64,000 nucleotides of DNA from Candidatus Omnitrophota bacterium. Lineage in GTDB: Bacteria > Omnitrophota > Omnitrophia > Omnitrophales > Aquincolibacteriaceae. Location of the stretch: contig JAKLFP010000008.1 of NCBI GenBank assembly GCA_022711115.1, positions 6,617 to 70,616 of the forward strand, given 5' to 3'. Below are positions 15,001-44,044 of the stretch, in pieces. The first letter of the stretch is position 1. Each line of letters begins with the position of its first letter. The position numbers and the translations under genes are program-made. Below the pieces are notes generated by a model. The model ran no database searches. It was not told where the DNA came from and saw only the letters and a program-made list of their open reading frames with translations.

Positions 15001-17092
15001 GGCGGTCAGGAAATACCGGGAAGGCAAGATCACAGAGGAAGCCTATGAAGAAACGAAAGCGCGTCTGAACCGGCTAGCCAATATCAGGCTGAATAAAGTC
15101 ATCAAGCTTGAGTTTGTGCTTATGATGAAACTACTCGATAACCGACGCTCCATTCGGAAAGTGCTGGATTCTCTGGTCGGTCACTTCGAAGAAAAAGAGC
15201 GAGAGCTTAAATGGCAAAGAATTCGGGAACTTCAAAAACGTAATGTTACGGAAGTGTTTGTGCGCAGCGCCTCCGACGATTACTTAAAAGTCAAATTGCT
15301 TAAAGATCTTGTGAGCCGACAGCGTGCGACTACCGGAGCCATCGAAAGAATCGAAAGCCGTTGGAATCAGCAAGAAACTTATTATTTAGCAACCATCAAG
15401 CAATTGTTCACAGCGTTGATTGATCATGAAAGCGCCGTTACCCAAAATCCAGCTCTTTGGAAAACGAAACTTTTAGATTATTTCAGGATGCGAAAAGTCG
15501 ATTTTAAAGGGAAATCCGATTCAGCAATCGGTGTGAACGATATTGCCGCAGCACTCTATTTGCGTCCCGATGTTGCTCAGGATGTTTTCTTGAGGATCAA
15601 GGCGTGGACGCGTCAAAAAACGGTAAAGGAACAAGAGGAACGAGTCAAAGTGGTCAGCCAACTTGTTCGTGATCTTATCCCGGATGAGGCGAAACACAAG
15701 GAAGGTCTTGAGAGGATCAAATACCGCAATCTTTTCAATTTCTTCCGTTCGCGGGATCATGTAGTTGCCAATTATGATACTGAGCACCGGAGAGCATGGG
15801 AAGCTATCGGATTTCTGACCGATTTAAAATTGCAATTACGCCACTATAAGAAAGAAGCGATTCCGTCATATAAAGTACGTAGTGCTCAACGCGATTTGAG
15901 GCAAGTTACCGATTGGGTGGAACATGGCAAAGTAAGTGAAAAAACTCGCATTAGGGAATTGATGCGGGTGGCTCAGGAAAATCTACAACTTGGGCAATAT
16001 GCGGTAACGATTTCGAAAGTGGAAGAAGCTCAGAGTATTCTGGAAAATGATTTCCTGGTCAGGATTGAGCGTATGAGCCGATTTGTTGCGCGCCACAAGG
16101 AATCCGTAAATTCTGAACTTGGAGCGCCGTTATCTATGATTCGAGCGGGAATCAAACACCGGGATCAAAGAGAATTTAAGAAAGCACTGACAGCATTGAC
16201 CCGCTTTCAGCATCGAAATATTGAAGGTTATACGGCGACCGAAGAAGAACCGGGTTACATACGCGCCAAAACTCGTTTTACTGTCATGATCAAGGCGCTT
16301 GAGAAACCCTTCGCAGAGAATAGACCAGTGAATCCTGCGGATCTCAGAGTAGTTCTCACGAATCTTTACCGCGTGCGCTATGACATCCAGCATAAATATG
16401 AAAAAATCGCAGAAATCGGAACGGAGGCCGACAAAATCAATCAAGAAGTCACGGCCAAGGTCACCCAAGATCTTGCTCTGGCTCGCTCTGAGATGAGGGA
16501 ACAACTACCAGGTGAAGGGCGAATTTCACCGGCATCAAGACCCGGTCTTGAACTTCGGGAGGCATCCGAACCCACGATCAATGTCAATACGATCTCAAAT
16601 ATCCAGGAACCGGTGGTGTTTGTGATTGAGCAGGCGAAGATTGATCAGCTGACGCCGGAGATGTTCAAGGAACTCCTGGCGCTTGCGGCGATCAATAAAG
16701 AAAGACTTCATGTCGTGATCCCTGATGCGTTGCAGGGGAAGTTCAGCGCCCGTGTCGGGGAACTCAAAACAATTGCCCATGTTTATTACGGGAATTTGCC
16801 GGAGGTCGCGAAATCACAAAAAGTCAAAGTGATTGGTTTTTCGCAGTCGGATGAAAATGTTGAGATCTTGAAGGCCCGATTTGGAGAAAGAATTGCGGGA
16901 CGGACTTCAGCTTATTTTACGACGGAGCAAACGGGAAGCTTCGCGGTCGCGTTGCTTTACGCGATCCAGAACATCAAACGGGAACAATTGAAAGTGAAGA
17001 ACGGCTACTTTTACGATGGGACAGGTTGGCTGACGAGCCGTGCACTTGAAATCCTCTGGAATTCCTATACGGTTATCTCCTCGGCAGCATAA
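44..17092 (+). CDS. giant membrane-associated protein of unknown function (>=5682 aa; 5' end probably upstream of window)
   Basis: One uninterrupted ORF of 17 kb in frame 2. The same frame has no stop from nt 2 to the first in-frame start (GTG at 44), so the N-terminus may lie outside the window. Hydrophobic helix-like stretches at about nt 233-290, 338-415, 868-935, 2098-2160, 5395-5480 and 5533-5605. 15 in-frame copies of the R-S-E-[MVIL]-R motif. P/A/K-rich low-complexity linker at about nt 8290-8545. All antisense ORFs inside it are short. I cannot name any domain from the sequence. Confidence 0.8.
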   Translation: MNEITFVVDYGTVGSNKSGTFSVTDLYFFSPPRSEMRSSIPEKEKPLEKIPVGMETKLERVQKIAIYLMRVSFLFLLGRLYLDMVGKSGNPFIDMPLKIPIWLSVSGIAFGYIFSAILFFLIKKHVGEEWSSGTQQLISEKKSQDPIISETEKDNAGQAPADFLKKQDESTPSERSEIRIALNKNTKIPDIAKALTGLPGLEGKDKRRAVARKILEVATTAGDKLIIADLQKIKELAGIATAELEKRFHITQAAPRAPPLSKKTVPQKNFLSFKTMIIPVALAAGVTAAVWLWNTYSPIARAYQTLLEYKNQVPPIPSTITRPGAEHHSIRWHGARMEVIGGAHGSDVGVAALLKLSKNEIMPHPKKWVLVTEGLLDAQKNGKEVLVPDIRIADYLNRTFNIPVEDVIPVLGDPEVVEILMKKTGLPREEILVADMFPRFHDFLSMTAKLLAAKGVGPDRGPSFDQIFAAFLETVRVLYQMPEPEIRRILLKAANDASNSNEVLEKFYGQINLVRVEMLKARNEIAAQRLKALVVKYPGKNFVVMIGALHLPVVGLKSDSFTTDVRLPSQSDIQWLANDIITHSRSEMRSEPVAPGAPRARSELKTESDKFTKAMKRVEVLGNKLTTLISFREDGPGVKKLEQLVEENFFSRRTNFLRSELRMNIKPISEDPFSKNRQVHSSRRQWLFRMGAGAILLSAACWFTVRNINSKNNKKNLPSTSKSMNLLGLYFVNHSSFDQIQPAFDKMDSDIAEYKRIQAGDPELVFFLEYVLSEEGLVQLVEHFSGVKAKDFDDLIQQHRELVEKNYNKLFYALSNQESIDRFFNDTSQVFGQIVQSLRKKYGKRIIFVVERVPFEVWLRCCKAQRFREMVRLDENGDISREWLKNHTSYLQENALVQFPRDEAFNAFMVDVGTRIFPSALKFTFRGLGHRINESLLGRNIKDFRPEDISADYIVREIEQRIRDGADLSSALTMASYYNDNFASSATAISDIRTFNLVTNEFQKNLLNLANESPQAIKKILIESVSIDKDMQHESSLIGKEIIALETSITQKTASGQMVVAEDIKRFSQLEGEFWKIYVAGNERLLGLSRKYNLISQKNYNLLLEANRQLYAKRKVEIFSKLEADLPMGIRQQLPRSEMRAAQEKSETAVVISRFRIDFSDARELQKDLEKIGIAAQAPDAEYIQFKGQDKAVAISDFQALVLAAEKAFGGKLNISVKKDPGSGKNILYAHRGKYPLAASSAEELIITLNRVISAVDLSKTAYLTHSLDITLPKNPAHPLVRELAGWVNHPGTLAQKVPDTDMRKVLLGAMIREHAELVLLDAFGFDAKTIGTIRKEFTQKQPVTAEKLLRFIHRTSMKKTDALMIWVKKYGPSLVRAVINPLIPFYGVLGDVLGEVGRGIADESSGFLEKERDEAVVQELTLWPVLIRTFVELVPEKIPMEAAGFPPKVIQELKGLKDPIVTMAGLDDLVNGPRFKDLKAATQQGILTCLLSVIPQLVSLEAIGVHPKIEEELGGIRINGFIEDGIRNVNELIDAFGNPEKFRLMELPPTTVRNLLLALLYAYPRHTLASLVAPYAGSLTAGDLIAYLAPEPVKEFLFPVLRPVWNSTLDELKAKFMGAEASIRSEMRSTDAITLDLTQEKGHRGVVELPGGMEGRIDFGSGGMYTAKELSGIYLTFKRDPKGAVRVQIIQNGNVKRQTILPGKTGRVIEIQGPMHFDEKVRFVFKNEPNSFFISTNSHWNTTLHYWHATGKFQESSGVFQTPDIPGKVLSKKDNVSTGLKSLGAFKRLFLNLALGFNIYAVGWWIHAFWDRRQSAILSSPVLEMSKETAAVGWLTVGLGTLSIGILSFILYKDFRNSWLISRFKIPKREAGESPRVPPSRSEVRMDHPEHLQLKVRAIAPALRIPSSKTGSGELTLLRLAQRGFTPAEFEAAIVSGQPPEAAVAALHGLRHPEHYWQALRVFFVRAALLHAVSWLSGGREPSVETILEAYLVLRREGRSDQEIFEFLVRRLNNNKVKEKLQATLKITAAQVIREAIEARVWVPEFLEWEQKLRAVVQDDFFTGMLEAQYAPGDFQTAAETALRQPQGEFARSFQQSFEALGIKDVPNAGILNVLRAYYLKAYLAHQKISTDENGTEQPLLGGQTLERGLIVRIYADLRSEGKNDQQVYEFLELALRTQKKAIASGQKSIAVVIEEALKARSEVRSNFRTERSGFQTAPVRAEMRVAAEARSELRSEQPDREKAFITRVLEAAREFGFSGPAALAILMKSIRPEQPARKQAQAVRQVSIEFPMNTPLPEAYQKWLRGEANEPEHVLILKREDAKTPAFVLKRENGKTRDFYFDTFGHNNILLIPYSTPQTGEVGFQIFLTALPVTSQPVKIRDLSLNKDQMIGGIQVKDQRTFLPEPKLWRAAKGSATAGRVGAYQFSDLLSRREGAAFERLMLIALHALTTGQIRSQQSLSTDPLLATYVQPDMIVTLHDRRQILDAKRGKGFENIAKSIMKYLLARDLNPDVLDAGVPIGIVALSSQEMENIRNSFSQFEEGKDYELILADDLVSELATMFPTHQRIGGEQGLTVEEIRQKLGYLRHEGAGEPTEETLAAEITMLNVIIGNLQIPSNGKKPVKTVKELIEIGKTNPDELLGYVRQTESRMDRFGERPLYTQEQLVVLQVNLTEIQAALNAVTGDAEWIREHLAEHEKLREILAVIDALISKIARRINLPAAAVASRERPGIKVASLASKEPVNQLIAEPLKATVPTTAEMKTLSESPKQPVAPAQAIETQPAPLPAEAIATKAEVTAAPALVAPKPETVAKPEKPSKPKAPRPAREQPQGKYESKVNLHLLEPGTSVYESVFGTHQQPKEPLDAVGALSKLLRVWTKRLKPEQDGILIRVQPRNRQAARQWEELGARSLRQHFGNRIADSLSSQTIHLEGIRGESPQGVSAIRIPISEPLDIPGLPEGLDAIHLVEGTGQGFAYLMRNTPHFRLVYERIQKPTFNFNDFQFLISLIRTGELRVLELPAYGFFTAEDMTSFIMNADLPQDIGAFLVSEEEARMIHEKKMKSALKKQKSDLVAAITQEVAAARKKLETALDSKRLAPGALVKLDAAQVKAIEAKIAELDALKIVEELFAIRSELRGDKQGISLEDARQALAEKKAVIEAQINALKLVGTELELFVHQAETLIKKGDQTAMNNWEYPKVLHYQEIRKLTPSDPVIQRLNDLTLSMILEFNEKKDSVSGDFLALMYGMMAVISAISIANEKSFFIEPVATVLKTSDLSGLELLLHATVQLLPLMTLSVSGGTLLTALCLSSEQYAHDRRFKNFVHNFAEMEMKAKFQNKGIIKSDQHRRYLARPEVMAEAVAIAETEYRKAEKPSAQLVVDFLMGHLAANANVEAMMHAMAGRVHEAISASEKITITIDPRRNYEYAREWFEKTQRADPNYPLWGRELLKDQTTENRGSLTAQLSGVPLHKRIFSALLRVPIRADNESCGVLAGALDIFFEVLMNEENHFGQSAGLHSKVSKFSAEHKVLRTFVEKTIAKGNPNYADVEAFRKRMAAWLELAEEIIGAPEFSGDKEKIARQLLKVRKAFTDWFAKHQIPFARIPENPATGNQEYIVVAMREEKSGRVFVGVPSATDFGKEVNSAAAEVSSAEVPVIFMDRDISSLMIEKGLTVIAMPRDSFMAGRDTEMVVFPQSLSGATLESIKLDLQPANKSLAVTALENARAHLLEIQIEAFKRSMEFFRQAYEMLQNESEGHPASREDELTRSFERLEKLWEQVSQSKPASGKSVVPFLEEVETHRKTLIGILQSGVVSRGKGERFLQDWAHHSASDYQFIFPKVITREDQRFGVIGFLDAAGDYYAASREASNRYVYINTAHPGSKPLRFRGGIQEIMLSGGRLVLGRLDTMKAVGEKETAVIMVAQVEGNAPIATRVLNAFLDTSLTLDTESGLLRETNISLVQAMEILRKTAVAPDQREAFQTDLMLVQVSYDGFNEALLAALGQGTVPYREMVKLFEKMASLQSDFETIQERNPSINKQQLNVFAKAALEKFLEWSRKQRVPFMGLVSGAEGKNINLVIGFLGRDGTLYIATQESHRFREVTDRADAKTVSFDNLPSFVRDEGMSILAIPQSALLEPRPEYIVFYPAVELLPSQALASDIPISSESAAQKSEPKSVVFPWDEMELVPAAPEHSQAVYEAFYKKQTFAVDKEVALEGLPIAEKVLAQLRRMHATQRDPFFRAATKGFELMVQALRTAAETGRLSVKLSNQCRTELEPLYSAKNVDDMHKASALKFLLPFAEFWKDHQDALIKRVQGINYRDQESELYHLQGVLGEDGKLYTTTDAMDTFVEITDAAEKKTISLPGRQGLLKALQEGKALILEIHNPMLKPEEMEARLTNLLMLRFKNSPARSEVRGTLTQQFPLGTIEFEFLMLHFLTKLSEDTGYDSEIRGDIFDPPEVWGKVTAEEMDNAVDKLVRAHPAGIAGEEQVSPVSYLFDQTGILVFDRASFLAAFDKMINTEFFDDLMEMAEGFEQAFDDFELEDPRFNVIKAYKAAAERILYFKYHRSEVRIDEAKIKQIVDELLEGDILMQPVDVTNYILRLGPYSSPKAGEVLKSVFKKYGLPEEGSGRSLPPGSPEMKLSFAILNEMIERHRKSWNVEPPGGETQTQGPARSEIRVQTSDVKSPVRFKDLMGSSSVKSSPIPSQDTLLIQVGKYLQGLPEADLNDILHSHGIMFPEGVRARLLKGFKDSTLKQTLLAKFGQTLNQRGVIGLAVSKDWIKRLTKSDKEYQVVWAGKDGKLYLLREFYEYLNNIPNDEERGKVAAALIVRFLIAKEFRQILREEEMPLEGKIRESVRAVEDYVYAARAIALSESQVDLRVRGFVYLQMYERKERFTRYAVPRVDWGSRIIRLETLLGRLYTLRDLLDTQKVVKTEDRETLKDIDESYKLDKDTEVLIRENLQGKSIEQLEEFQKQFSDSYLKIKSGIATAVRKYREGKITEEAYEETKARLNRLANIRLNKVIKLEFVLMMKLLDNRRSIRKVLDSLVGHFEEKERELKWQRIRELQKRNVTEVFVRSASDDYLKVKLLKDLVSRQRATTGAIERIESRWNQQETYYLATIKQLFTALIDHESAVTQNPALWKTKLLDYFRMRKVDFKGKSDSAIGVNDIAAALYLRPDVAQDVFLRIKAWTRQKTVKEQEERVKVVSQLVRDLIPDEAKHKEGLERIKYRNLFNFFRSRDHVVANYDTEHRRAWEAIGFLTDLKLQLRHYKKEAIPSYKVRSAQRDLRQVTDWVEHGKVSEKTRIRELMRVAQENLQLGQYAVTISKVEEAQSILENDFLVRIERMSRFVARHKESVNSELGAPLSMIRAGIKHRDQREFKKALTALTRFQHRNIEGYTATEEEPGYIRAKTRFTVMIKALEKPFAENRPVNPADLRVVLTNLYRVRYDIQHKYEKIAEIGTEADKINQEVTAKVTQDLALARSEMREQLPGEGRISPASRPGLELREASEPTINVNTISNIQEPVVFVIEQAKIDQLTPEMFKELLALAAINKERLHVVIPDALQGKFSARVGELKTIAHVYYGNLPEVAKSQKVKVIGFSQSDENVEILKARFGERIAGRTSAYFTTEQTGSFAVALLYAIQNIKREQLKVKNGYFYDGTGWLTSRALEILWNSYTVISSAA

Positions 17093-32799: not shown

Positions 32800-33432
32800 A
32801 TGCCATTCGGTTTTTTGATGCCCAAAAACGTCAACTTTTTTGATCTTTTTGATAAACAAGTCGCCTATGCGGTGGATGCTGCCGTTCATTTCAAAAGGAT
32901 TGTTTCGGACTTTAAAGTGGATGAAGTGGAAAGAAGCAAGATGAAAGACATTGAACATCAGGCCGACGATATTGCCCACCAGATCATTGACCAGCTCAAT
33001 AAGACTTTTATCACACCCTTTGACCGGGAGGATATTCATTCACTTGCTAAAGAATTGGATGACATTGTGGATATGCTCGATACCATTACGAATCGACTGC
33101 TTGTTTATAAAATCCTCAGCCCGGACCGAAATCTCACGGAATTTGCGAATGTGATCGAACAATCTGTCAAAGGAGTGGCTGAAGCGGTGAGAGGGCTTCG
33201 CAATCTAAAAAACCAGAAGAAAATCTTAGAAGCCTGTCGGGAAGTAAACAGCCTTGAGAATGTCGGCGATAGAATGCGTGATGATATGCTAGGGGATCTT
33301 TTCGAAACGTACGCTAAGGATCCTGTGTCTGTTATCAAATGGAAAGAGATCTATCAGGACGCCGAAACAGTCCTTGATATCTGTGAGGATGTGGTGCATG
33401 CAGTCGAATCCATTATCGTCAAGCAGGCTTAA
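32800..33432 (+). CDS. Pit accessory protein / PhoU-related phosphate transport regulator (DUF47 family)
   Basis: 210 aa helical protein immediately upstream of pit. Classic pit-accessory arrangement. RBS GAGAGGAG. Confidence 0.7.
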   Translation: MPFGFLMPKNVNFFDLFDKQVAYAVDAAVHFKRIVSDFKVDEVERSKMKDIEHQADDIAHQIIDQLNKTFITPFDREDIHSLAKELDDIVDMLDTITNRLLVYKILSPDRNLTEFANVIEQSVKGVAEAVRGLRNLKNQKKILEACREVNSLENVGDRMRDDMLGDLFETYAKDPVSVIKWKEIYQDAETVLDICEDVVHAVESIIVKQA

Positions 33433-33438
33433 GGGCGC

Positions 33439-34428
33439 ATGACCAGTTATATTATCTTTCTTGTTTTTTTAGCGCTTCTTTTCGATTTTTTAAACGGTTT
33501 TCATGATTCCGCCAATTCCATTGCGACCGTTGTATCCACCCGTGTCCTTTCTCCTCGTCTTGCTGTAATTTGGGCAGCCTTTTTTAATTTTGTCGCTTTT
33601 TTCCTGTTTGGGCACCATGTAGCCTTGACGATTGGCAAGGGAATCATTGATATTGCCATCGTCGATAATCACGTGATTTTTGGAACCTTGATGGGGGCAT
33701 GTCTCTGGAACATTATCACGTGGTATTTTGGGCTTCCGACAAGCTCTTCTCATGCTTTGATCGGCGGCATGATCGGTGCAGCACTCGTCAAAACCGGTCC
33801 GCAAGCGTTAGTTTGGCAGGGTATTACGAAAACGGTTGCCTTTATTTTTATTTCACCGGTGTTCGGTCTCATTCTTGGAGTTGTATTTGGGATCGCGGTT
33901 TATTGGTTCTTCCGGAATAGTGCGCCTCTTCAAGTAGATCATATCTTTCGCAAGGGACAACTTCTTTCCGCGGCTTTATACAGTTTAGGCCACGGTGGTA
34001 ATGACGCCCAAAAAACCATGGGGATCATCGCAAGTCTCCTTTTCAGTGCCGGCATGCTTGGTAAGGAATTTGAGATTCCGAAATGGGTTGCGGTTGCCTG
34101 TTATTCGGCTATTGCGTTGGGGACAATGTTCGGGGGATGGAGGATTGTCAAGACCATGGGACAAAAAGTTGCCAAACTTCGCCCGATGGACGGATTTTGT
34201 GCGGAATCAGGAGCTGCCGTTACCCTTTTCATGTCATCCTTTTTAGGAGTTCCTGTCAGTACAACGCATACCATTACCGGTGCGATCATGGGGGTTGGCT
34301 CCTTGAAGCGCCTGAGTGCTGTGAGATGGGGTGTTGCCGGAACGATTATCTGGGCATGGATTTTGACCATTCCGTGTTCAGCCGCTATTGCTGCCTGTTG
34401 CTATGCGGCTATGAGGTTCTTTTCCTAG
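33439..34428 (+). CDS. pit: inorganic phosphate transporter, PiT family
   Basis: 329 aa polytopic membrane protein. Duplicated GxxDxxNxIAT-like motifs (FHDSANSIATVVST; GHGGNDAQKTMGII) are diagnostic of PiT. Confidence 0.85.
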   Translation: MTSYIIFLVFLALLFDFLNGFHDSANSIATVVSTRVLSPRLAVIWAAFFNFVAFFLFGHHVALTIGKGIIDIAIVDNHVIFGTLMGACLWNIITWYFGLPTSSSHALIGGMIGAALVKTGPQALVWQGITKTVAFIFISPVFGLILGVVFGIAVYWFFRNSAPLQVDHIFRKGQLLSAALYSLGHGGNDAQKTMGIIASLLFSAGMLGKEFEIPKWVAVACYSAIALGTMFGGWRIVKTMGQKVAKLRPMDGFCAESGAAVTLFMSSFLGVPVSTTHTITGAIMGVGSLKRLSAVRWGVAGTIIWAWILTIPCSAAIAACCYAAMRFFS

Positions 34429-34467: not shown

Positions 34468-34507
34468 TTTACGCCATCTTTACACTTCCATCACGCCGAT
34501 TTGACAC
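34468..34507 (+). promoter_or_regulatory. array of four PhoP/PhoB-type direct-repeat half-sites at 11-bp phasing upstream of the porin gene
   Basis: TTTACGC (34468), TTTACAC (34479), ATCACGC (34490), TTGACAC (34501). Centres are exactly 11 bp apart. Lies about 70 bp upstream of the ATG at 34578. Confidence 0.45.
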
Positions 34508-34577
34508 GTTCTTTTTATCATTTCCTCAGAAGATAAAATCTCAAAATCTAAACCATGGGATAACAGGAGGAAGTGAT

Positions 34578-36110
34578 ATGAAGCGAAGAGTTGTTTGGCA
34601 AACGTTCGCATGTTTTGTTTTTTCGATTTTTTATTTTTCAACGCCAGTCATGGCTCAGGATGTGGAACTTGTCGGTTTAATCAAGGCTTTGCAAAAGCAA
34701 ATAACCGATCTTCAAACAACAGTTCAGGCTCAGAATGCAGAAATTCAGGAACTCAAAGCCAAAGGAGCTCGGATACAAGTAGCACCCAAAGGGGTAGAAA
34801 TGACCCCAATCACACCCATGAGTGAAGCAGAGTTCAAGCAACGCCTTGGTGACGCGACGGGGGGCGCGGACAAATGGCTCAAGGACCTGAAATTCAAAGG
34901 GGATCTCAGGCTTCGCTACGAGGCGTTTGATAACCGGAGCCAAAGTCTTTCTCCGAATGAAGCGGATTCCAGAAACCGTTTCCGGTATCGGCTGCGCTAT
35001 GGATTTGAAAAGAAATTCAGCGATCAAATCCTTGCGGGTTTCAGCCTGGCTTCGGGAGAGGCGCCTTATATCAATGGCTCGAGCGGAGGTTCTTCGCAAG
35101 CGTTTAACGGTGACCCAACATCCACCAATACTTCGTTCGACAGCAACTTCAATTTCAAGCCTATCTATATTGAAAAGGCCTATGCGACTTACACGCCGAA
35201 TTGGGTCAAGATACGGCTTGCCGATGGCCTGGGCATCGATAATCTGACGATCACCGGCGGGAAGATGGATAATCTTTTTGAAAAGGGCTCCTCCGAAATC
35301 ATGTGGGACCGTGACGTAAAACCCGAAGGATTTATCCAAAAAATCGATGTGGCTCTTATCAAAGCAGCGGATTTTGCCCTCAAGGGGTTTTTCACGGCAG
35401 GGCAATTCGTGCTTGATGAGGATAAAGTCGCGACCGGTGCAAGCAGTGACGCCAATCTTTTTGCCTTTCAGATGGGCGTCAATCCGGTTTTCTACACGCC
35501 TGTGATGGATCGCCCCATCGATCTTCTATCAGCCGTTTCTTATTATGATTTTGGGAAATACGGTCAGTACAATAATTGGAAAATTGACGGTGCCAGCGGG
35601 AGAAGTCTGGCACGAGGCAACCCACGTGATCCTACCAATTCGGCAAGCTTGGCCGCGGGAGGGTTCCGGATATGGGAAACTTACAATGAATTGGCATTTT
35701 ATCCCATGGGAATTCCTGTCCGGCCATTTTTTGATTATCTCACCAATACGGCAAATGGCGCCGGGATTTTCCCGGTTGCCGGTTCTAATGAGGATCATTC
35801 GTGGGCCTACGGGCTGAAAGTAGGGGGGATCCACAAAAAAGGGGACTGGGAACTCGGCTGGCAGTACCGATATGTAGGAGCGAATGCGCAGCCAGGATTC
35901 AATGACAGCGATTTTGGCTATGAAGCCCATTCGGGTGTTCGTGGCAATGTGTTCAAAGCCGGGTATGGCTTGACGGACTATCTGACCGTCAATGGGGCCA
36001 TGTATTTTGTGAATAACCTTAATCCAGGAAATACGAGAGGTCTCACGGATACCTACGGCATCGAGCAACGACAAAACCGTTTCCAAGTGGATCTTGTCTG
36101 GAAATTCTAA
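34578..36110 (+). CDS. outer-membrane porin, probably phosphate-selective (OprO/OprP-like)
   Basis: 510 aa with signal peptide (MKRRVVWQTFACFVFSIFYFSTPVMA). N-terminal coiled-coil-like segment. Ends in the aromatic residue (..WKF) typical of beta-barrels. Embedded between pit and pstS behind Pho-box-like repeats. RBS AGGAGG. Confidence 0.6.
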   Translation: MKRRVVWQTFACFVFSIFYFSTPVMAQDVELVGLIKALQKQITDLQTTVQAQNAEIQELKAKGARIQVAPKGVEMTPITPMSEAEFKQRLGDATGGADKWLKDLKFKGDLRLRYEAFDNRSQSLSPNEADSRNRFRYRLRYGFEKKFSDQILAGFSLASGEAPYINGSSGGSSQAFNGDPTSTNTSFDSNFNFKPIYIEKAYATYTPNWVKIRLADGLGIDNLTITGGKMDNLFEKGSSEIMWDRDVKPEGFIQKIDVALIKAADFALKGFFTAGQFVLDEDKVATGASSDANLFAFQMGVNPVFYTPVMDRPIDLLSAVSYYDFGKYGQYNNWKIDGASGRSLARGNPRDPTNSASLAAGGFRIWETYNELAFYPMGIPVRPFFDYLTNTANGAGIFPVAGSNEDHSWAYGLKVGGIHKKGDWELGWQYRYVGANAQPGFNDSDFGYEAHSGVRGNVFKAGYGLTDYLTVNGAMYFVNNLNPGNTRGLTDTYGIEQRQNRFQVDLVWKF

Positions 36111-36112
36111 AG

Positions 36113-36130
36113 TTTACATGGATTTTACAT
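36113..36130 (+). promoter_or_regulatory. Pho box (TTTACAT-N4-TTTACAT) upstream of pstS
   Basis: Perfect 7-bp direct repeat TTTACAT / ggat / TTTACAT. Ends 50 bp upstream of the pstS ATG. Matches the B. subtilis PhoP-type TT(A/T/C)ACA consensus with 11-bp periodicity. Confidence 0.55.
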
Positions 36131-36179
36131 CCGTAGCGCAGATTCTGAATTAGAATAAAAAAACAAAGGAGAGATTGAA

Positions 36180-37052
36180 ATGAAACTATCAAAATTGGTT
36201 GTTCGAGGAGCGCTGATCATGGGTTTTGCAGCGCTCGTGCCCATGGCGTTCGCGGCAAAGAATATTACGGTCAAAGGATCGGATACGATGGTGGTGCTCG
36301 GCCAGAAGTGGGCCGAAGTCTATATGCAGAAAAATCCCGGCGTTGCTATTCAAGTGACGGGTGGCGGGTCCGGGACAGGGATTGCCGCTTTGATCAACGG
36401 CACGACTGATCTTGCCAACGCGAGCCGTCCCATCAAGGAAAGTGAAGTAGAAAAAGCGCAAAAAGCAGGCTATTACCCGGAGGAGATCAAGGTCGCGATG
36501 GACAGTTTGGCCGTTGTGACGCATAGCACGAATCCCATCAAAGAGCTCTCCATGAAACAGTTGATGGGCATTTATATGGGACGGATCAACAACTGGAATG
36601 AAGTGGGGGGACCCGACAAACCGATTCTTCGGTATTGCCGTGAGTCTTCAAGCGGCACCTATGTTTTTTTTAAAGAACATGTTCTGAAGAATCAAGACTA
36701 TGCTGCGGATTGCCAGACCATGCCTGGGACTTCCGCTGTCGCGAATGCCGTTTCCAAGGATCCCTCTGGGATCGGGTATGGCGGGGCGGCCTACTATCTC
36801 AACCAGCCCCAGATCAAGATTCTTTCCATTAAAAAAGACGACAAATCGGAAGGAGTCAATCCAGTCAAGGCGGATGGGACTTTGGATTATGAAGCCGCCT
36901 GGACGGGACGTTATCCGGTTGCCAGATATCTGTACATGTACGCCGGCTTTAAACCGCGCGGGGATGTTAAGGCGTATGTGGCTTGGATCTTGAGTCCGGA
37001 AGGACAGAAGATCGTCGAAGAGATCGGCTACGTGCCGCTTGAAGCAAAATAG
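36180..37052 (+). CDS. pstS: phosphate ABC transporter substrate-binding protein PstS
   Basis: 290 aa with signal peptide. GSDTMVVLGQKW...GGGSGTGIAALINGTTD phosphate-binding protein motifs. RBS AAGGAGAG. Confidence 0.85.
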   Translation: MKLSKLVVRGALIMGFAALVPMAFAAKNITVKGSDTMVVLGQKWAEVYMQKNPGVAIQVTGGGSGTGIAALINGTTDLANASRPIKESEVEKAQKAGYYPEEIKVAMDSLAVVTHSTNPIKELSMKQLMGIYMGRINNWNEVGGPDKPILRYCRESSSGTYVFFKEHVLKNQDYAADCQTMPGTSAVANAVSKDPSGIGYGGAAYYLNQPQIKILSIKKDDKSEGVNPVKADGTLDYEAAWTGRYPVARYLYMYAGFKPRGDVKAYVAWILSPEGQKIVEEIGYVPLEAK

Positions 37053-37186: not shown

Positions 37187-38155
37187 ATGCGTAAAGAAAT
37201 GCTGGGGAGCATGGAACAACACCGCTTGACGAAAAAAAAAGAAGTCTTTTCGGAATGGTTCATCGAAAAATTACTGCTTATGGCAGGGATTTCGTCGACT
37301 CTGATCATTGCTCTGATCTTCCTGTTTCTTTTCAAAGAGGCAGTTCAATTCTTCAAAACCGCTGGGTCTTTCGATCTCATCGGGAAATGGGTTTACGACG
37401 ACTGGGAGGAGAGGAATGTTTTCAAGATGATGTGGCAATCGATTTCCGAAGTCCCGAAATATTCTCTCATTCCGTTGTTTTGCGGAAGTTTTTTGGTAGC
37501 GTTTCCGGCCACGATCATTGCTTCAGTTCTCGGCATCGGTTGTGCAATTTATCTTTCCGAACTCGCCCCGCCCAAAGTCAGGGAGATGCTGAAGCCGACG
37601 ATTGAACTCCTGGCAGGGATCCCGTCGGTCGTGATCGGTTTTATCATGCTCGCTTTTCTCGCGACCTTTATTCAGGATGTTTTTCACACAAAATTTCGCC
37701 TCAATGCTTTTGTCGGGGCCTGCGGCGTTGCGCTGGCGGTGCTTCCGATCATGATTACCATTGCGGAGGATGCCATGAGGGCAGTCCCCAAAGAACTCCG
37801 GGACGCGTCGTACGCGTTAGGCGCGACCAAGTGGCAGACAATCTGGGGGACGGTCGTTCCAGCCGCTGTGTCCGGTATTTCGGCGGCAGTGATCCTCGGG
37901 TTTGGCCGCGCACTCGGCGAAACGATGATCGTGCTGATGGCGACAGGAAACGCGGCTCTCGTGACCGGGAATATTTTTTCCAGTGTCCGGACCATGACGG
38001 CCAATATCGCCGCGGAGCTTGGTTCCGTGGCGCAGGGGACCGAACATTATTACGCCCTTTTTCTCGTCGGGGCTGTTCTTTTTACGTTTACCTTCACGCT
38101 CAATTTTATTTCCGAGATTATCTTGAACAAGATGCGGCAAAAATTGAGGATGTAA
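37187..38155 (+). CDS. pstC: phosphate ABC transporter permease PstC
   Basis: 322 aa polytopic membrane protein. ABC permease EAA-like region (YALGATKWQTIW). Position in the pstSCAB operon. Confidence 0.85.
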   Translation: MRKEMLGSMEQHRLTKKKEVFSEWFIEKLLLMAGISSTLIIALIFLFLFKEAVQFFKTAGSFDLIGKWVYDDWEERNVFKMMWQSISEVPKYSLIPLFCGSFLVAFPATIIASVLGIGCAIYLSELAPPKVREMLKPTIELLAGIPSVVIGFIMLAFLATFIQDVFHTKFRLNAFVGACGVALAVLPIMITIAEDAMRAVPKELRDASYALGATKWQTIWGTVVPAAVSGISAAVILGFGRALGETMIVLMATGNAALVTGNIFSSVRTMTANIAAELGSVAQGTEHYYALFLVGAVLFTFTFTLNFISEIILNKMRQKLRM

Positions 38156-38157
38156 AT

Positions 38158-39129
38158 ATGAAGAACGCGTTATCCCTTAAATTTCATGGGCTCACAAAAA
38201 GAAGCTTTCGATGGGACGAAGTCCTTTCGGATTTTCTAGTGCGTTTTTTTGCTTTGATCCCCATCGCCGCGCTTGCTTTTATCATGATGAAGATCATTGC
38301 GAAAGGGAGTGGCGCGATCACTTGGGAATTTCTGACTCAGGCGCCGTCGCAGGGAATGATGCACGGTGGCATTTTCCCGTGTATTTTTGGGACGCTTGCC
38401 ATTACTTTATTGATGATCCTCATGGCGCTCCCGCTCGGTGTGGCGGCCGCGATCTATCTGACCGAATACGCGGGAAAGGGGTTGCTTTTCCGGGTCATCC
38501 GGGCCGCGGTCAATAATCTGGCCGGTGTTCCTTCAATCGTGTTCGGGCTTTTTGGCGTCGGTTTTTTTATTCTCTTTGTGGGCCGCAATCTTGATGCGGT
38601 TCTTAAGACGGGGATGTTATTCGGCCAGCCCTGCATGCTTTGGGCCGCGGCGACTCTTGCCGTTCTCGTGTTGCCGGTTATTATCGTTGCAACGGAAGAA
38701 GCGCTTAATACCGTTCCGCAGAGTCAACGCGCCGCTTCGCTCGCGCTCGGCGCAACAAAATGGCAGACCATTTGGAACATAGTCCTCCCTCAGGCTCGCG
38801 GCGGGATCTTAACGGGAGCGATTCTCTCGATCAGCCGCGGCGCCGGGGAAACCGCGCCGATTTTGTTCACAGGCTGCGCTTATTTTTTACCAAGACTCCC
38901 GGTTGTGAACCTTTTCGGATTCATACCTATGATCAACCCCTTTGACCAGTTCATGGAGCTTTCTTATCATATCTTTATTATGGCTACGCAGTCTTTGGAC
39001 GCGGTCAAGACGCTTCCGATCCAATACGGGACAACGCTTGTTCTGATTTCATTGACCTTTTTGCTTAATTTGACGGCTATTCTTTTTAGAGTCCATTTTC
39101 GAAAAAAAATGGGGACTGTAACCGTTTGA
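38158..39129 (+). CDS. pstA: phosphate ABC transporter permease PstA
   Basis: The supplied ORF 37831..39129 is an in-frame 5' extension overlapping pstC. The ATG at 38158 lies 2 nt after the pstC stop. 323 aa membrane protein with a second ALGATKWQTIW motif. Confidence 0.8.
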   Translation: MKNALSLKFHGLTKRSFRWDEVLSDFLVRFFALIPIAALAFIMMKIIAKGSGAITWEFLTQAPSQGMMHGGIFPCIFGTLAITLLMILMALPLGVAAAIYLTEYAGKGLLFRVIRAAVNNLAGVPSIVFGLFGVGFFILFVGRNLDAVLKTGMLFGQPCMLWAAATLAVLVLPVIIVATEEALNTVPQSQRAASLALGATKWQTIWNIVLPQARGGILTGAILSISRGAGETAPILFTGCAYFLPRLPVVNLFGFIPMINPFDQFMELSYHIFIMATQSLDAVKTLPIQYGTTLVLISLTFLLNLTAILFRVHFRKKMGTVTV

Positions 39130-39268: not shown

Positions 39269-40090
39269 ATGGAAATAAAAATTTTAAACAGCGGAAAGAC
39301 TCTTAGAGTCAATCAGGATCAGGACCTTTCGAGCAATACGACCAAGATACTTGTCCGAGACCTTGAAATGTTCTATGGCCCGGTTCGAGCGCTTCATGGG
39401 ATCGACATGGAGATTAAGGAAAAGGCTGTGACGGCGCTCATCGGTCCTTCTGGTTGCGGGAAATCGACCTTTTTGCGCACATTGAACCGGATGAACGATA
39501 CAATCCCTGGCGCTAGGATCCATGGAACTGTTCTTATCGATGATGTCAATATTTACAGTCCGGAAGTGAATGTTGCTGTGCTGCGCCGCATGGTGGGAAT
39601 GGTGTTCCAAAAGCAAAATCCTTTTCCTAAAAGTATTTTTGACAATATCGCTTATGGTCCCCGCCTCCATGGTGTTATCGATAAAGCGGTGCTTGAACAC
39701 ATTGTCGAGGAAAGTCTCAAAAAAGCGGCGCTTTGGAATGAAGTCAAAGATCGGCTGCAGACGGGGGCGCTCGAGCTTTCCGGAGGACAGCAGCAAAGGC
39801 TTTGCATCGCGCGCGTCCTTGCCGTGAATCCCGAAATCATACTTATGGACGAGCCGGCTTCGGCGTTGGACCCGCTTTCGACGGCGAAGATCGAAGAACT
39901 TATTTATGAATTGAGGAAAAATTACACGATCGTGATCGTCACCCATAACATGCAGCAGGCCGCGCGTGTTTCGGATTTTACCGCGTATTTTTATATGGGC
40001 TCGCTTGTGGAATTCGGTTTGACCAAGGATGTTTTCACGAATCCGCTGAAGAAAGAAACCGAGGATTATATTACCGGCCGGTTCGGCTAA
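39269..40090 (+). CDS. pstB: phosphate import ATP-binding protein PstB
   Basis: 273 aa. Walker [13 protein letters not shown] signature LSGGQQQRL, Walker [12 protein letters not shown]. Confidence 0.9.
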
Positions 40091-40101: not shown

Positions 40102-40764
40102 ATGGAACGTCATTTTCATGAAGAGTTCAAAACGTTAAGGGAAAAGCTTTTTCAGATGGGATTGCTGGTGGAAGGAGCTATGGAGAAGGCCATGGACACG
40201 ATCCTTGAACGTAAAGGAGAATTGGTCGAAGCCGTTCTAACGGATGAAAATCTTATCAATCAACTTGAGATCGAGATCGATGAAAAAGGTCACGCCTTGT
40301 TCGCTTTGGCGCAGCCCGTGGCGGGTGATCTCCGACTATTAACCATGATCCTTAAGATCAATACGGATCTCGAAAGAATGGGCGATCATGCGGTCAATAT
40401 CGCCGAGAAAGGCCAATACCTTCTTGGCCAGGCGCCGCTCAAAACGGATTTTCCCATCGGCAAGATGGCGGATTCTGTAAAAAAAATGGTTCGCGATGCT
40501 CTTGATTGTTTTATGAACGAAAATGTGGAGTTGGCCCGCAAGGTGCTCCAAAGCGATGACGAGATCGATGATTTCAACGATCAGCTTTATGAAGTTATGG
40601 CAACGCTTATGGAAAAAGATCCCCCAGCTGTTCGGAGAGCTTTAAATTATATGATTATTGGGCGCAATCTCGAGCGCATTGCGGATCTGGCGAATAACAT
40701 TGCTGAAGACACCATCTATCTTAAGCAAGGGAAAGAAGTGCGCCACCACTTCGAAAAAAAATGA
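40102..40764 (+). CDS. phoU: phosphate signalling complex protein PhoU
   Basis: 220 aa two-repeat helical protein immediately after pstB. RBS AAGGAGAAGG. Confidence 0.85.
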   Translation: MERHFHEEFKTLREKLFQMGLLVEGAMEKAMDTILERKGELVEAVLTDENLINQLEIEIDEKGHALFALAQPVAGDLRLLTMILKINTDLERMGDHAVNIAEKGQYLLGQAPLKTDFPIGKMADSVKKMVRDALDCFMNENVELARKVLQSDDEIDDFNDQLYEVMATLMEKDPPAVRRALNYMIIGRNLERIADLANNIAEDTIYLKQGKEVRHHFEKK

Positions 40765-40767
40765 GCG

Positions 40768-42543
40768 CTATTTAGGAAAGAAAACAGAAAAACGGGAGCC
40801 CTCGTGAAATGTGCTTTGGCAGGTGACTTTACCACCGTGGGCTTCCATAATATGCTTCACAATGGCAAGTCCAAGCCCTGTGCCGCCCATCTCTCTCGAT
40901 CTTGCTTTGTCCACGCGGAAAAACCGTTCGAAAATACGCGGGAGGGCCTCCTGGGGGATCCCTGTGCCGGTATCTTCGATCGAAATTTCAATTTCTCCGG
41001 GATGTTGTTTGGCATCCAGGATGATTTTGCCTTTTTTTTCGTTAAATTTGATCGCATTATCAATCAAATTCACAAGCACTTGCCTGAATTTATCAAGGTG
41101 GGCTTTCAGCGAAATGGCTGGAATTCGGGCGATTTTGTTTTCGATAACTAATTGTTTTAATTCGATTTGGGATTTGAACCTATCGAGAACGGTCTGGATT
41201 TCTTTCTGAAGCTCCAGATTTTCTTTGCTTATAAGCTTGTTGCTCTGTTCGATTTCATTAAGCGTTAGCAGGTCATCGACCAAGCGGGAGAGACGGGAAG
41301 TATCTTCGGACATCATTTTTAAGAAGCCTTCACTGGTTTTTGGATCTTTAAGAGCTCCGCCTAAGAGCGTCTCAATGAACCCTTGCAATGAAGTGAGAGG
41401 CGTCCGGAGTTCATGAGAAACATTGGCCACGAATTCTTTGCGGATGTTTTCAAGTCTGCGCAGTTCGGTCACATCGTAAAAGACGAGGATCCCTCCGATA
41501 TTTTGGATGTTTTCGCCAAGAATGACGACGTTGGCGCGCAAGATGTTCCTGGTTTTTGAAGAAAGCTGAATTTCTTCCGTAATATCTTTTTGCTCTTTGA
41601 TGGCGCGATCGACAATCAGTTCAAGCACGGGATGCCGTGTTATTTCGATCAGGCTTTTCCCAAAAGCTTGATTCATATAAAAGCCGAAAAGATGCTCCGC
41701 GTTTGGATTTGCCGTAATTAGCCGCTTGCGGCGGTCGATCGCGATGACGGCTTCGGTCATGTTGTTGAGGATTGCGGCAATTTTCCCTTTCTCGTTTTCC
41801 AGATCCTTGATCCTGACTTTAAGCGTCTCGGCCATGAGATTCATCGTATCGCCAAGGAGTTTGAGTTCATCCTTTCCGTCCATCAAGATCCTTTCCGACC
41901 AATCTTCACGGGCGTATTTTTCAGCAACCCAGGTGATTTTTTTTATACGTTGGGTCAAATGTTTTGCGAATAAAATTCCAGTAAATAAAACGATCAGAAC
42001 CCCGGCAAGCGCAGAAACGATAATGGGTTTTCGGGCCGACGCGAGAAGTTCGTCGACCCGGGTGATCGGCATGGCCACCCTTATCACGCCGCTTATTTTC
42101 TCATTTTCGAGGATAGGGACAGCAACATAAAGCATGGGAGTTTTGAGCGTCAGGCTGTAGCGGGTAAAGCTTCCCGTTGTTTTTCTGAGTGCCGCGGCAA
42201 TTTCCGGTCTTGAAGCGTGATTGTCCATTTTTTCAATCGCTTCTGGGGTTTCGCTGGAATCGGCCGAGACCGTCCCTTCCGGATTAACGACCGTAATGCG
42301 GCTTTGCGTGTCACGCGCGATTTTTTCGATAAGGCTTTGAAGTTCTGATTGTTGGGACAAAAGGGGAGCTGTAATTCTCCGGATCACAAGGGCCTGATGG
42401 GTGAGAGACTGTTTGAGTTGGGAAAGATTCCGCTTGCTGAGAGTCTGGGATAAGGTCCAATCCGTGATGATCAAGACCGTCACAAAAACGACGCCATAAA
42501 GTGCGATAAACCGTTTTGCGAAACCAATTCGTGGCCAAAGCAT
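40768..42543 (-). CDS. phoR: phosphate regulon sensor histidine kinase PhoR
   Basis: The supplied ORF runs to 42675 and overlaps phoB. The start MLWPRIGFAK (ATG at 42543) lies 1 nt after the phoB stop. N-terminal TM helices, HAMP-like region, HisKA (SHELRTPL), HATPase (GTGLGLAIVKH). Confidence 0.8.
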   Translation of the reverse strand: MLWPRIGFAKRFIALYGVVFVTVLIITDWTLSQTLSKRNLSQLKQSLTHQALVIRRITAPLLSQQSELQSLIEKIARDTQSRITVVNPEGTVSADSSETPEAIEKMDNHASRPEIAAALRKTTGSFTRYSLTLKTPMLYVAVPILENEKISGVIRVAMPITRVDELLASARKPIIVSALAGVLIVLFTGILFAKHLTQRIKKITWVAEKYAREDWSERILMDGKDELKLLGDTMNLMAETLKVRIKDLENEKGKIAAILNNMTEAVIAIDRRKRLITANPNAEHLFGFYMNQAFGKSLIEITRHPVLELIVDRAIKEQKDITEEIQLSSKTRNILRANVVILGENIQNIGGILVFYDVTELRRLENIRKEFVANVSHELRTPLTSLQGFIETLLGGALKDPKTSEGFLKMMSEDTSRLSRLVDDLLTLNEIEQSNKLISKENLELQKEIQTVLDRFKSQIELKQLVIENKIARIPAISLKAHLDKFRQVLVNLIDNAIKFNEKKGKIILDAKQHPGEIEISIEDTGTGIPQEALPRIFERFFRVDKARSREMGGTGLGLAIVKHIMEAHGGKVTCQSTFHEGSRFSVFFPK

Positions 42544-42544
42544 A

Positions 42545-43234
42545 CTAGTCTCCGTCGAAACGGTAACCGACACTTTTGACTGTCGTGATCCGCCGCGATT
42601 CGTTTCCGAGTTTTTTTCGAAGTTGCGTGATATGCATGTCCACGGTCCGGGTCTCGATGTTGATGGAATTTTCATATCCCCAAACTTTGGATAAAAGGAC
42701 CTCGCGCGTCAGGACGCGCCCTGAGGAACTCATGAGTATTCGGAGAAGTTCAAACTCTTTTGCCGTAACTTCCACGGGCCTGGTTTTGAGGCGCAGTTCG
42801 TGCTTGCTGATATCCAGTTCAATGGTGCCGATCTTTAAGAATTCCTTTTTAGGGATCTCCTGGCTCCTCCGGAGGACAGCTTTGACACGGGCGATCAACT
42901 CGCGAGGGCTGAAGGGTTTAGTGATATAGTCATCAGCCCCAAGTTCCAATCCCACCACTTTATCCGCTTCCGTCCCTTTGGCCGTGAGCATAATGATTGG
43001 GATTGTGCGTGTTTTAGGATTTTGCCGGAGGGTTTTACAGATATCAAGGCCGCTTAATTCCGGCAACATAAGATCCAGAATGACGAGGGAGGAACTGCCC
43101 CTTAATGCCAATTCGAGGCCCATTCGTCCTTTACTTGCTGTCAGGACCTGAAAGCCTTCGTGCTCGAGATTATATTTGATAAGCTCGAGGATGTTTTTCT
43201 CATCTTCAATGACGAGGATCTTTTCGTTTGTCAT
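42545..43234 (-). CDS. phoB: phosphate regulon response regulator PhoB/PhoP (OmpR family)
   Basis: 229 aa. Receiver domain (LVIEDE...D...K) plus winged-helix C-terminus (TVDMHITQLRKKL). Divergent from the Pho-box-containing promoter. Confidence 0.85.
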   Translation of the reverse strand: MTNEKILVIEDEKNILELIKYNLEHEGFQVLTASKGRMGLELALRGSSSLVILDLMLPELSGLDICKTLRQNPKTRTIPIIMLTAKGTEADKVVGLELGADDYITKPFSPRELIARVKAVLRRSQEIPKKEFLKIGTIELDISKHELRLKTRPVEVTAKEFELLRILMSSSGRVLTREVLLSKVWGYENSINIETRTVDMHITQLRKKLGNESRRITTVKSVGYRFDGD

Positions 43235-43273
43235 AAATTTGACGCATCATTTTAACATAGCTTCCAAAGCTTC

Positions 43274-43291
43274 ATGTAAAAAAGATGTAAA
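43274..43291 (-). promoter_or_regulatory. Pho box (TTTACAT-N4-TTTACAT on the - strand) in the phoB / DUF2490 divergent promoter
   Basis: The + strand reads ATGTAAA-aaag-ATGTAAA, the reverse complement of the pstS box. Lies 40 bp upstream of the phoB ATG and 58 bp upstream of the + strand gene at 43349. Confidence 0.5.
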
Positions 43292-43348: not shown

Positions 43349-44044
43349 ATGAAACGTTCTTTTTCCGTTTGTTTTTTTGGCATAGTTTTTTTGATGCTTT
43401 TAGGAATCAAGAGCCCCTTAGCGACTGCCACGCCCGCCAAAGATGAGGATTTTGGTTCTTGGCAAATTTACGATATTGAAAAGAAAGTGAACTCCCAGTT
43501 TAAAATGAAGGTGGGGGAAGAACTGCGTTTCCGGAGCCACAACGGGCTTTATTATGCGGAGACCCATGTGGGAGTGGACTATAAGCTGATGAAATACCTG
43601 GCGTTGGGTGCCGAGTATCAGGAAATCATCAGCTCCCGATGGAATAAGAAAAAGAAAGAAAATTTGTGGTATTGGGATAACGTGCCTCGCTTTTACACCA
43701 CGCCGCAATATTCTTTGAAAGGTTTCGTACTTGAAGACCGCAATATGTTGGAACTCCATTTTAAGCAACAAGCGGATAATACTGTGCGTTATCGGAATAT
43801 GGTGACCATCACGGCACCCTGGAAATGGACCCCGTTGGAATTTCAGCCATATACCTCCAACGAAATATTCATCGAGACCACCCGTAACGGGATGGTGGAG
43901 GACCGGTTTTTTTCCGGATTCAAGGTGCATTGGTGGGGGCCGGTTTCCGGATCGATCTTTTATTTGCGCCAATCCGCCAAGAATTCTCTCGCGAAATGGA
44001 CGTCGCTCAATATTCTCGGGACAAGTCTTAAATACTCTTTTTAG
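43349..44044 (+). CDS. hypothetical outer-membrane protein (DUF2490-like), possibly Pho-regulated
   Basis: 231 aa with signal peptide. Alternating beta-strand-like pattern. Ends ..LKYSF. RBS TAGGAGGA. Shares a promoter region with the Pho box. Confidence 0.5.
   Translation: MKRSFSVCFFGIVFLMLLGIKSPLATATPAKDEDFGSWQIYDIEKKVNSQFKMKVGEELRFRSHNGLYYAETHVGVDYKLMKYLALGAEYQEIISSRWNKKKKENLWYWDNVPRFYTTPQYSLKGFVLEDRNMLELHFKQQADNTVRYRNMVTITAPWKWTPLEFQPYTSNEIFIETTRNGMVEDRFFSGFKVHWWGPVSGSIFYLRQSAKNSLAKWTSLNILGTSLKYSF

Follow-up and report, generated by a model that had tools for sequence, protein, structure and literature searches.

The window, by which we mean the whole 64-kb stretch of Omnitrophota DNA that was analysed, contained a porin-pstSCAB-phoU cluster on the forward strand. 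Genes for a phoB/phoP-like response regulator and a phoR-like histidine kinase were located next to it on the reverse strand (Table 1). The homologues of PstS with 64-86% identity were Candidatus Omnitrophota/Omnitrophica MAG proteins that were named PstS. The identical PstS protein was seen on metagenome contigs only, and the nearest genome loci (L007-L014) were Omnitrophota MAGs. All Omnitrophota loci examined had the porin gene directly 5' of pstS. The presence of a porin gene implied an outer membrane, and the host was therefore a diderm, from a phylum without cultivated members.

Other genes were located around this cluster. The PhoU_div and PHO4 pair began just 27 nt past ETF genes, and no box was seen before the pair (32800-34428). 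A DUF2490 gene (43349-44044, + strand) was divergent from phoB, with which it shared a boxed intergenic region of 114 nt. This gene may be co-regulated with phoB. The DUF2490-phoB pairing was not kept in the Omnitrophota locus L010. A giant ORF of 5682 codons was present at 44-17092 (+ strand), and neither half of it had a Pfam match at E <= 1e-5.

Table 1. Coordinates of genes and predicted regulatory sites at the locus.
Feature	Position	Strand	Details
PhoU_div + PHO4 pair (Pit-type transporter)	32800-34428	+	directly upstream of porin operator
Four-unit operator before porin gene (predicted)	34468-34507	+	TTTACGC 34468-74, TTTACAC 34479-85, ATCACGC 34490-96, TTGACAC 34501-07
Predicted −10 hexamer at porin	34516-34521	+	TATCAT; 8 nt past unit 4; predicted from alignment columns
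Outer-membrane porin gene	34578-36110	+	510 aa; Pfam Porin_5; heads porin-pstSCAB-phoU cluster
Pho box before pstS (predicted)	36113-36130	+	TTTACAT 36113-36119, spacer GGAT 36120-36123, TTTACAT 36124-36130
Predicted −10 hexamer at pstS	36151-36156	+	TAGAAT; 20 nt past box
pstS RBS	36166-36171	+	AAGGAG
pstS, phosphate ABC transporter substrate-binding protein	36180-37052	+	290 aa; Pfam PBP_like_2 1.9e-42; NCBIfam TIGR02136 247 bits, cutoff 206.6
pstC	37187-38155	+	Pfam BPD_transp_1
pstA	38158-39129	+	Pfam BPD_transp_1
pstB	39269-40090	+	Pfam ABC_tran
phoU	40102-40764	+	Pfam PhoU; NCBIfam phoU_full above cutoff
phoR-like histidine kinase	40768-42543	-	591 aa; Pfam Cache-like, HAMP, PAS, HisKA, HATPase
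phoB/phoP-like OmpR-family response regulator, presumed binder	42545-43234	-	229 aa; Pfam Response_reg + Trans_reg_C
Predicted −10 hexamer at phoB	43249-43254	-	TAAAAT; 19 nt past box
Pho box before phoB (predicted)	43274-43291	-	TTTACAT 43291-43285, spacer CTTT, TTTACAT 43280-43274

The direct repeat upstream of pstS and its recurrence

At positions 36113-36130, a 7-bp unit was repeated directly and without mismatch, with a period of 11 bp. The first-pass annotation had described TTTACAT-N4-TTTACAT about 50 bp before pstS, and this was borne out, with 49 nt between the end of the box and the pstS ATG (36180). The box started 2 nt past the stop codon TAA of the porin ORF (36108-36110).

The exact pair, which has 14 specified bases, occurred twice in the 64-kb window (36113-36130 and 43274-43291). 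A search for TTTACA-N5-TTTACA upstream of genes had been proposed as a check. It was carried out over the 64-kb window with <=1 mismatch and gave three matches against 0.24 expected, all at the promoters of Pho genes. Chance was controlled using 100 dinucleotide shuffles, and none of them (0/100) reached three matches. Absence of such repeats at the other Pho promoters had been named as the result that would refute the reading. The opposite was observed, as phoBR carried identical 7-bp units and the porin gene a four-unit array. Single TTTACAY heptamers were not enriched across the window (14 versus 11.4 expected). This meant that the signal was the phased pairing at Pho promoters. A chance origin of the repeat was excluded.

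Recurrence was also observed at the orthologous promoters of other Omnitrophota genomes. TTTACA-type units were present at the corresponding promoters of 11 other Omnitrophota loci. When <=2 mismatches were allowed, TTTACAY-N4-TTTACAY gave 25 matches in 191.5 kb of Omnitrophota DNA, compared to 3.8 in shuffles. All 15 Omnitrophota matches with <=1 mismatch preceded either the porin gene, pstS (first or second copy), or a phoB operon. As a control for circularity, 6-mers were counted with no motif assumed in 24 upstream regions that were set by gene starts alone. TTTACA was the top 6-mer, with 29 occurrences against 0.91 expected (20 of the 24 regions, p ~3e-33), ahead of the ribosome-binding (Shine-Dalgarno) word AGGAGA. 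T2, A4, and C5 were invariant in units 1-2 of 23 Omnitrophota sites, which were chosen by pattern. The site before pstS was predicted from its sequence to be a Pho box of the TT(T/A)ACA class, one of three in the window.

Further boxed genes were seen in the relatives. Second, divergent pstS(CAB) sets with 41-46% identity to the first set and a Pho box of their own were located in L007 (8522-13381), L009 (14682-19510), and L013 (6581-7414). The second sets of L007 and L009 had two pstB genes in tandem, and the second pstS of L013 had three consecutive TTTACAT units. In L008 (14577-15233, - strand), an ORF of 178 aa with an N-terminal hydrophobic stretch had the box-like pair TTTACAC-gctc-TTTACGA about 100 nt upstream. 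It could be a member of the Pho regulon.

Promoter layout at porin, pstS and phoB

The porin operator with its spacers was TTTACGC-catc-TTTACAC-ttcc-ATCACGC-cgat-TTGACAC, with an 11-bp period. Ten Omnitrophota porin promoters shared the layout TTTACRY-N4-TTTACAY-N4-(A/C)TCAnnn-N4-(C/T)TGACAC, followed after 8 nt by TAnnnT. The invariant columns of their alignment were TTAC, TTTAC, GAC, and T..TA...T, and the −10-like hexamers of the relatives were TATACT, TAAACT, TAAGCT, and TACACT. The four-unit layout and TAnnnT were kept in the ten genomes although the porins were only 45-57% identical. In the case of L014, the layout was located upstream of three small ORFs that preceded the porin. Unit 4 of the porin operator (TTGACA/CTGACA) was considered as a true −35 element and was ruled out, as it was merely 9 nt from the conserved −10.

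A conserved leader of about 90-190 nt was observed 3' of the porin promoter in L007 (~1450-1516) and L008 (~8275-8341), with equivalents in L009, L087, L088, and L089. It held ..GCCATGAAAA.. and ..attctgttcc..caaccggaggag. It was missing from the window, where the leader was shorter.

The phoB box was located 39 nt upstream of the regulator ATG. It was found in the window and in L011, and no box was seen upstream of phoB in L010. In L012, the box preceded a crcB-DUF190-phoBR operon. This region (L012 4976-5790) had the box TTGACAC-aaac-TTTACAT before two ORFs, one for a CrcB-like fluoride channel and a small one that was assigned to DUF190 by eye. The position of the two ORFs directly upstream of phoB-phoR suggested a single Pho-controlled operon.

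Only two strong units were found at pstS and at phoB. The slots of units 3-4 were degenerate at both sites (AGCGCAG/TGAATTA at pstS and CTTTGGA/ATGTTAA at phoB). Orthologues of the pstS box were present in the porin-pstS spacers of L008, L012, L087, and L088. The gap between the box and the hexamer was exactly 20 nt in the window (TAGAAT), L008 (TAAACT), L087 (TAAACT), and L088 (TAGACT). The L012 spacer had an extra TTTACGT unit 8 nt before TAGAAT.

The pstS box was missing from 7 of the 12 Omnitrophota loci, which meant that it was dispensable. A GC-rich hairpin replaced the box in the porin-pstS spacers of L007 (3060-3133), L009 (9925-10000), and L089 (7925-8000), and the L007 hairpin, for example, read GGGACAGTCC-ttcg-GGACTGTCCC. 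L010, L011, L013, and L014 had just a short spacer. The porin-pstS spacer of the Omnitrophota loci therefore had three alternative forms, namely a box, a hairpin, or a short spacer. The pstS box is a secondary internal site that was kept in some Omnitrophota only, whereas the four-unit site before the porin gene is the main operator and is conserved.

A sigma-70 scan gave no coding-strand −35/−10 pair at porin and pstS (+ strand) or at phoB (- strand). The lack of a canonical pair at the three promoters fits activator dependence. At pstS, a −35 element at 16-18 nt from TAGAAT was not found. TTTACA matches the −35 consensus TTGACA at 5 of 6 positions, and the two TTTACA hexamers could simply be sigma-70 −35 elements of tandem promoters that are constitutively active, rather than a regulator site. 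However, no −10-like hexamer was located 16-18 nt downstream of either TTTACA, and the scan of the + strand was empty. In addition, −35 boxes would not be expected to be phased at 11 bp, to be exactly duplicated, to recur together at porin, pstS, and phoB, or to be conserved across genomes as a pair and not as a single hexamer, as was observed here. We considered constitutive tandem promoters to be highly improbable.

The distance from the last strong unit to TAnnnT was 8 nt at porin, 20 nt at pstS, and 19 nt at phoB. The gaps of 8 and 19-20 nt differ by about one helical turn, and the units would therefore lie on the same helix face relative to the presumed −10. The Pho promoters of E. coli and B. 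subtilis are described as having four units that end about 10 bp from the −10 (PMC4415409; PMC11870197), as in the porin layout with its predicted −10. Because pstS and phoB had only two strong units and a degenerate slot beside the −10, it was uncertain which hexamer is the −10 at these sites and how precisely the units are placed.

The place of the pstS box just past the porin stop allowed a second reading, in which the bound regulator would act as a repressor or as a roadblock to transcription coming from the porin promoter, with no internal activation. A terminator scan gave none between porin and pstS. Given this and the 2-nt distance from the porin stop, transcription from the porin promoter should cross the pstS box. 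The hairpin at the box position in some relatives suggests that this spot sets the ratio of porin to pstS expression, which would also be consistent with a roadblock. However, the pstS units were oriented along transcription. Four genomes kept TAnnnT 20 nt past the box, an arrangement similar to that of the autoregulated phoB promoter. Moreover, Pho induction is more universal for pstS than for any other gene (PMC4415409). Repression or a roadblock at this site was judged improbable.

The encoded regulator, the kinase and a proposed mechanism

The top NCBIfam model of the regulator was PhoB TIGR02154 with 257.6 bits, below the cutoff of 296.2. The Bacteroidetes PhoB model NF053854 gave 228 bits, below the cutoff of 270. 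Its assignment as a curated PhoB equivalog was rejected, since both scores were under the cutoff. The receiver domain gave 143.8 bits against B. subtilis PhoP (1mvo) and a lower score, 111.6 bits, against E. coli PhoB (1b00). No other OmpR-family regulator was found in the 64-kb window. Because the phoB-like protein was the only OmpR-family regulator in the window and its best family match was PhoB, it was taken as the presumed binder. The repeat very probably serves as a Pho box, the operator of this regulator, which is encoded 6 kb away (42545-43234).

The operator of E. coli KdpE, TTTATA-N5-TTTACA, has near-identical half-sites at 11-bp spacing (PMC3264566), and sites of the OmpR family are generally A/T-rich direct repeats. 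The site could belong to another regulator whose gene lies outside the window, for example a KdpE-like OmpR-family protein. However, no kdp genes were present here, and the sites preceded the pst, porin, and phoBR genes, not kdp, in 12 genomes. In addition, the phoB-like gene, the one OmpR-family regulator gene of the window, was boxed in its own promoter. A regulator encoded elsewhere was considered extremely improbable, and the phoB-like protein was kept as the presumed binder.

In the case of the kinase, the NCBIfam scores were 400 bits for WalK and 397.5 bits for PnpS, a near miss of the cutoff of 400. The phoR_proteo model gave 310.1 bits versus a cutoff of 334.2, and the Bacteroidetes PhoR model gave 227.7 versus 500. 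The kinase was not accepted as a curated PhoR/PnpS member, as all PhoR/PnpS scores were under the cutoff.

The residues that contact DNA were compared with those of E. coli PhoB. The recognition helix was ETRTVDMHITQLRKKL in the regulator and VEDRTVDVHIRRLRKAL in E. coli PhoB. In the alignment to the DNA-binding domain of E. coli PhoB (1gxp), the helix ETRTVDMHITQLRKKL was placed against EDRTVDVHIRRLRKAL. Thr194 was kept, and the changes were V197M, R200T, and R201Q in the helix comparison and R219K in the wing. In E. coli PhoB, thymines are contacted by Thr194 and Val197, guanine receives a specific H-bond from Arg201, and Arg219 reaches the bases that separate the half-sites (PMC3973317). 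Since the regulator was changed at all of these DNA-contact residues but Thr194, an altered half-site would be expected. Met197, Thr/Gly200, Gln201, and Lys219 were common to all five Omnitrophota regulators recovered (5/5).

Arg201Gln was considered as the sole cause of the change from G3 to T3. This was rejected, because Bacteroidales PhoB keeps Thr-Arg at 200/201 together with GTTACA boxes. A further counter-case was Flavobacterium, which has Arg-Lys with TTAACAT.

We infer that the regulator binds these sites and activates rather than represses, with TAnnnT as the −10 and phosphate as the controlling signal. When phosphate is plentiful, PstSCAB and PhoU would hold the Cache-HAMP-PAS kinase in check. 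Upon phosphate limitation, the kinase would phosphorylate the regulator, which would then bind TTTACAY units 11 bp apart in a head-to-tail manner, as a dimer or a longer array. The bound array might substitute for the absent −35 and recruit RNA polymerase to the TAnnnT −10. In this scheme, the four-unit operator would drive the porin-pstSCAB-phoU cluster. The two-unit internal site before pstS would top up transcription of pstSCAB-phoU independently of the porin, within a longer porin-pst transcript. The two-unit site before phoBR would be autoregulatory.

Comparison with known Pho boxes

Firmicutes sites were similar to those of the window. The S. pneumoniae pstS1 box, TTTACACAATCTTTACA, was proposed for PnpR (PMC4913102), and the L. 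paracasei pstS box, tttacacaatctttacattcaatgacatgaacatttaca, is bound by PhoP~P in EMSA (PMC11870197). The latter promoter, tttacac-aatc-tttacat-tcaa-tgacatg-aaca-tttaca, was described as four (T/A)T(T/G)ACA units (PMC11870197). According to the account in PMC11870197, which cites Eder 1999, the B. subtilis rule is four TT(A/T/C)ACA-like units with an 11-bp period. The Firmicutes PhoP/PnpR boxes had in common with the present sites the half-site TTTACA[C/T] and the 11-bp period. They also resembled the porin operator in having four units, strong at the distal end and weaker or variant at the proximal end. The alternation of T and G at position 3 in L. paracasei had a parallel here, with TTTACA in units 1-2 and YTGACA in unit 4. 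The extracytoplasmic Cache-like, HAMP, and PAS build of the kinase was likewise similar to that of Firmicutes kinases, with the best scores for WalK/PnpS. E. coli PhoR is not known to have a sensor domain in the periplasm.

Several features were unlike those of Firmicutes. The host belonged to Omnitrophota, with an outer-membrane porin in the operon, and only two recognisable units were present at pstS and phoB of the window. The best NCBIfam model of the regulator was the PhoB model and no Firmicutes model. In addition, phoU adjoined pstB in the window, whereas phoU is, to our knowledge, absent from B. subtilis.

The E. coli PhoB box, CTGTCAT-N4-CTGTCAT with the −10 lying 10 bp downstream, was similar in that it consists of 7+4-bp direct repeats, which take the place of the −35 in E. 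coli and would do so here. It likewise stands before pstS and phoBR (autoregulation), with a PstSCAB-PhoU cluster alongside. The Pho-regulated porin PhoE of E. coli is a counterpart of the boxed porin. Unit 4 of the porin operator (C/TTGACAC) was one position off CTGTCAC and ended 8 nt before the predicted −10. However, the strong units were TTTACAY, which match CTGTCAT at 4 of 7 positions. CTGTCAT-N4-CTGTCAT with <=3 mismatches gave two matches in the 64-kb window compared to 3.2 expected, and neither was near a Pho gene.

Among more distant loci, those of Ignavibacteria, Bacteroidales, Zixibacteria, Delongbacteria, and a Bacillota MAG had pairs like TT(A/T)ACA or GT(T/A)ACA before pstS/phoB. 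Acidobacteria and two MAGs, one deltaproteobacterial and one of Myxococcales, had CYGTCAC pairs. The first-pass annotation had classified the half-site as Gram-positive PhoP type and not E. coli type. This classification was right, as the published Firmicutes sites were almost identical and no CTGTCAT pair was located near Pho genes of the window. The term Gram-positive did not cover all cases, however, since Ignavibacteria, Bacteroidales, Zixibacteria, and other loci had TT(T/A)ACA-like pairs as well. Our literature search found nothing on Pho boxes in Omnitrophota or Bacteroidetes.

A broader interpretation may be offered tentatively and with more doubt than confidence. The TT(T/A)ACA operator with a Cache-HAMP-PAS PhoR might be a widespread and perhaps ancestral Pho switch, which would include the diderm Omnitrophota, Ignavibacteria, and Bacteroidales. 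CTGTCAT with Arg201 might then be the derived form of Proteobacteria, Acidobacteria, and Myxococcota, and the Omnitrophota PhoB (Met197, Thr/Gly200, Gln201, Lys219) might constitute a distinct, predictable specificity class.

These results leave textbook accounts of Pho regulation as they are, and this kind of box is already well known. They add a diderm phylum to the lineages with a TT(T/A)ACA rather than a CTGTCAT half-site. The operator model consists of TTTACAY with an 11-bp period, in two to four units, and TAnnnT 8 or about 19-20 nt downstream. Since Omnitrophota are known from metagenomes only, such a model could help to work out which genes make up their phosphate-starvation regulon. 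According to the model, a dedicated porin would be induced together with pstSCAB. The natural recognition-helix variants M197, T/G200, Q201, and K219 provide material on the specificity of the PhoB family.

Phased pairs of a different form were also observed in other phyla. TTAACAT-N4-TTAACAT was present at Flavobacterium pst/phoB loci (L041, L049, L054, L055, L057, and L067). In Bacteroidales (L043, L047, L051, and L058), runs of GTTACA(T/A), with four units at most, were located upstream of phoB.
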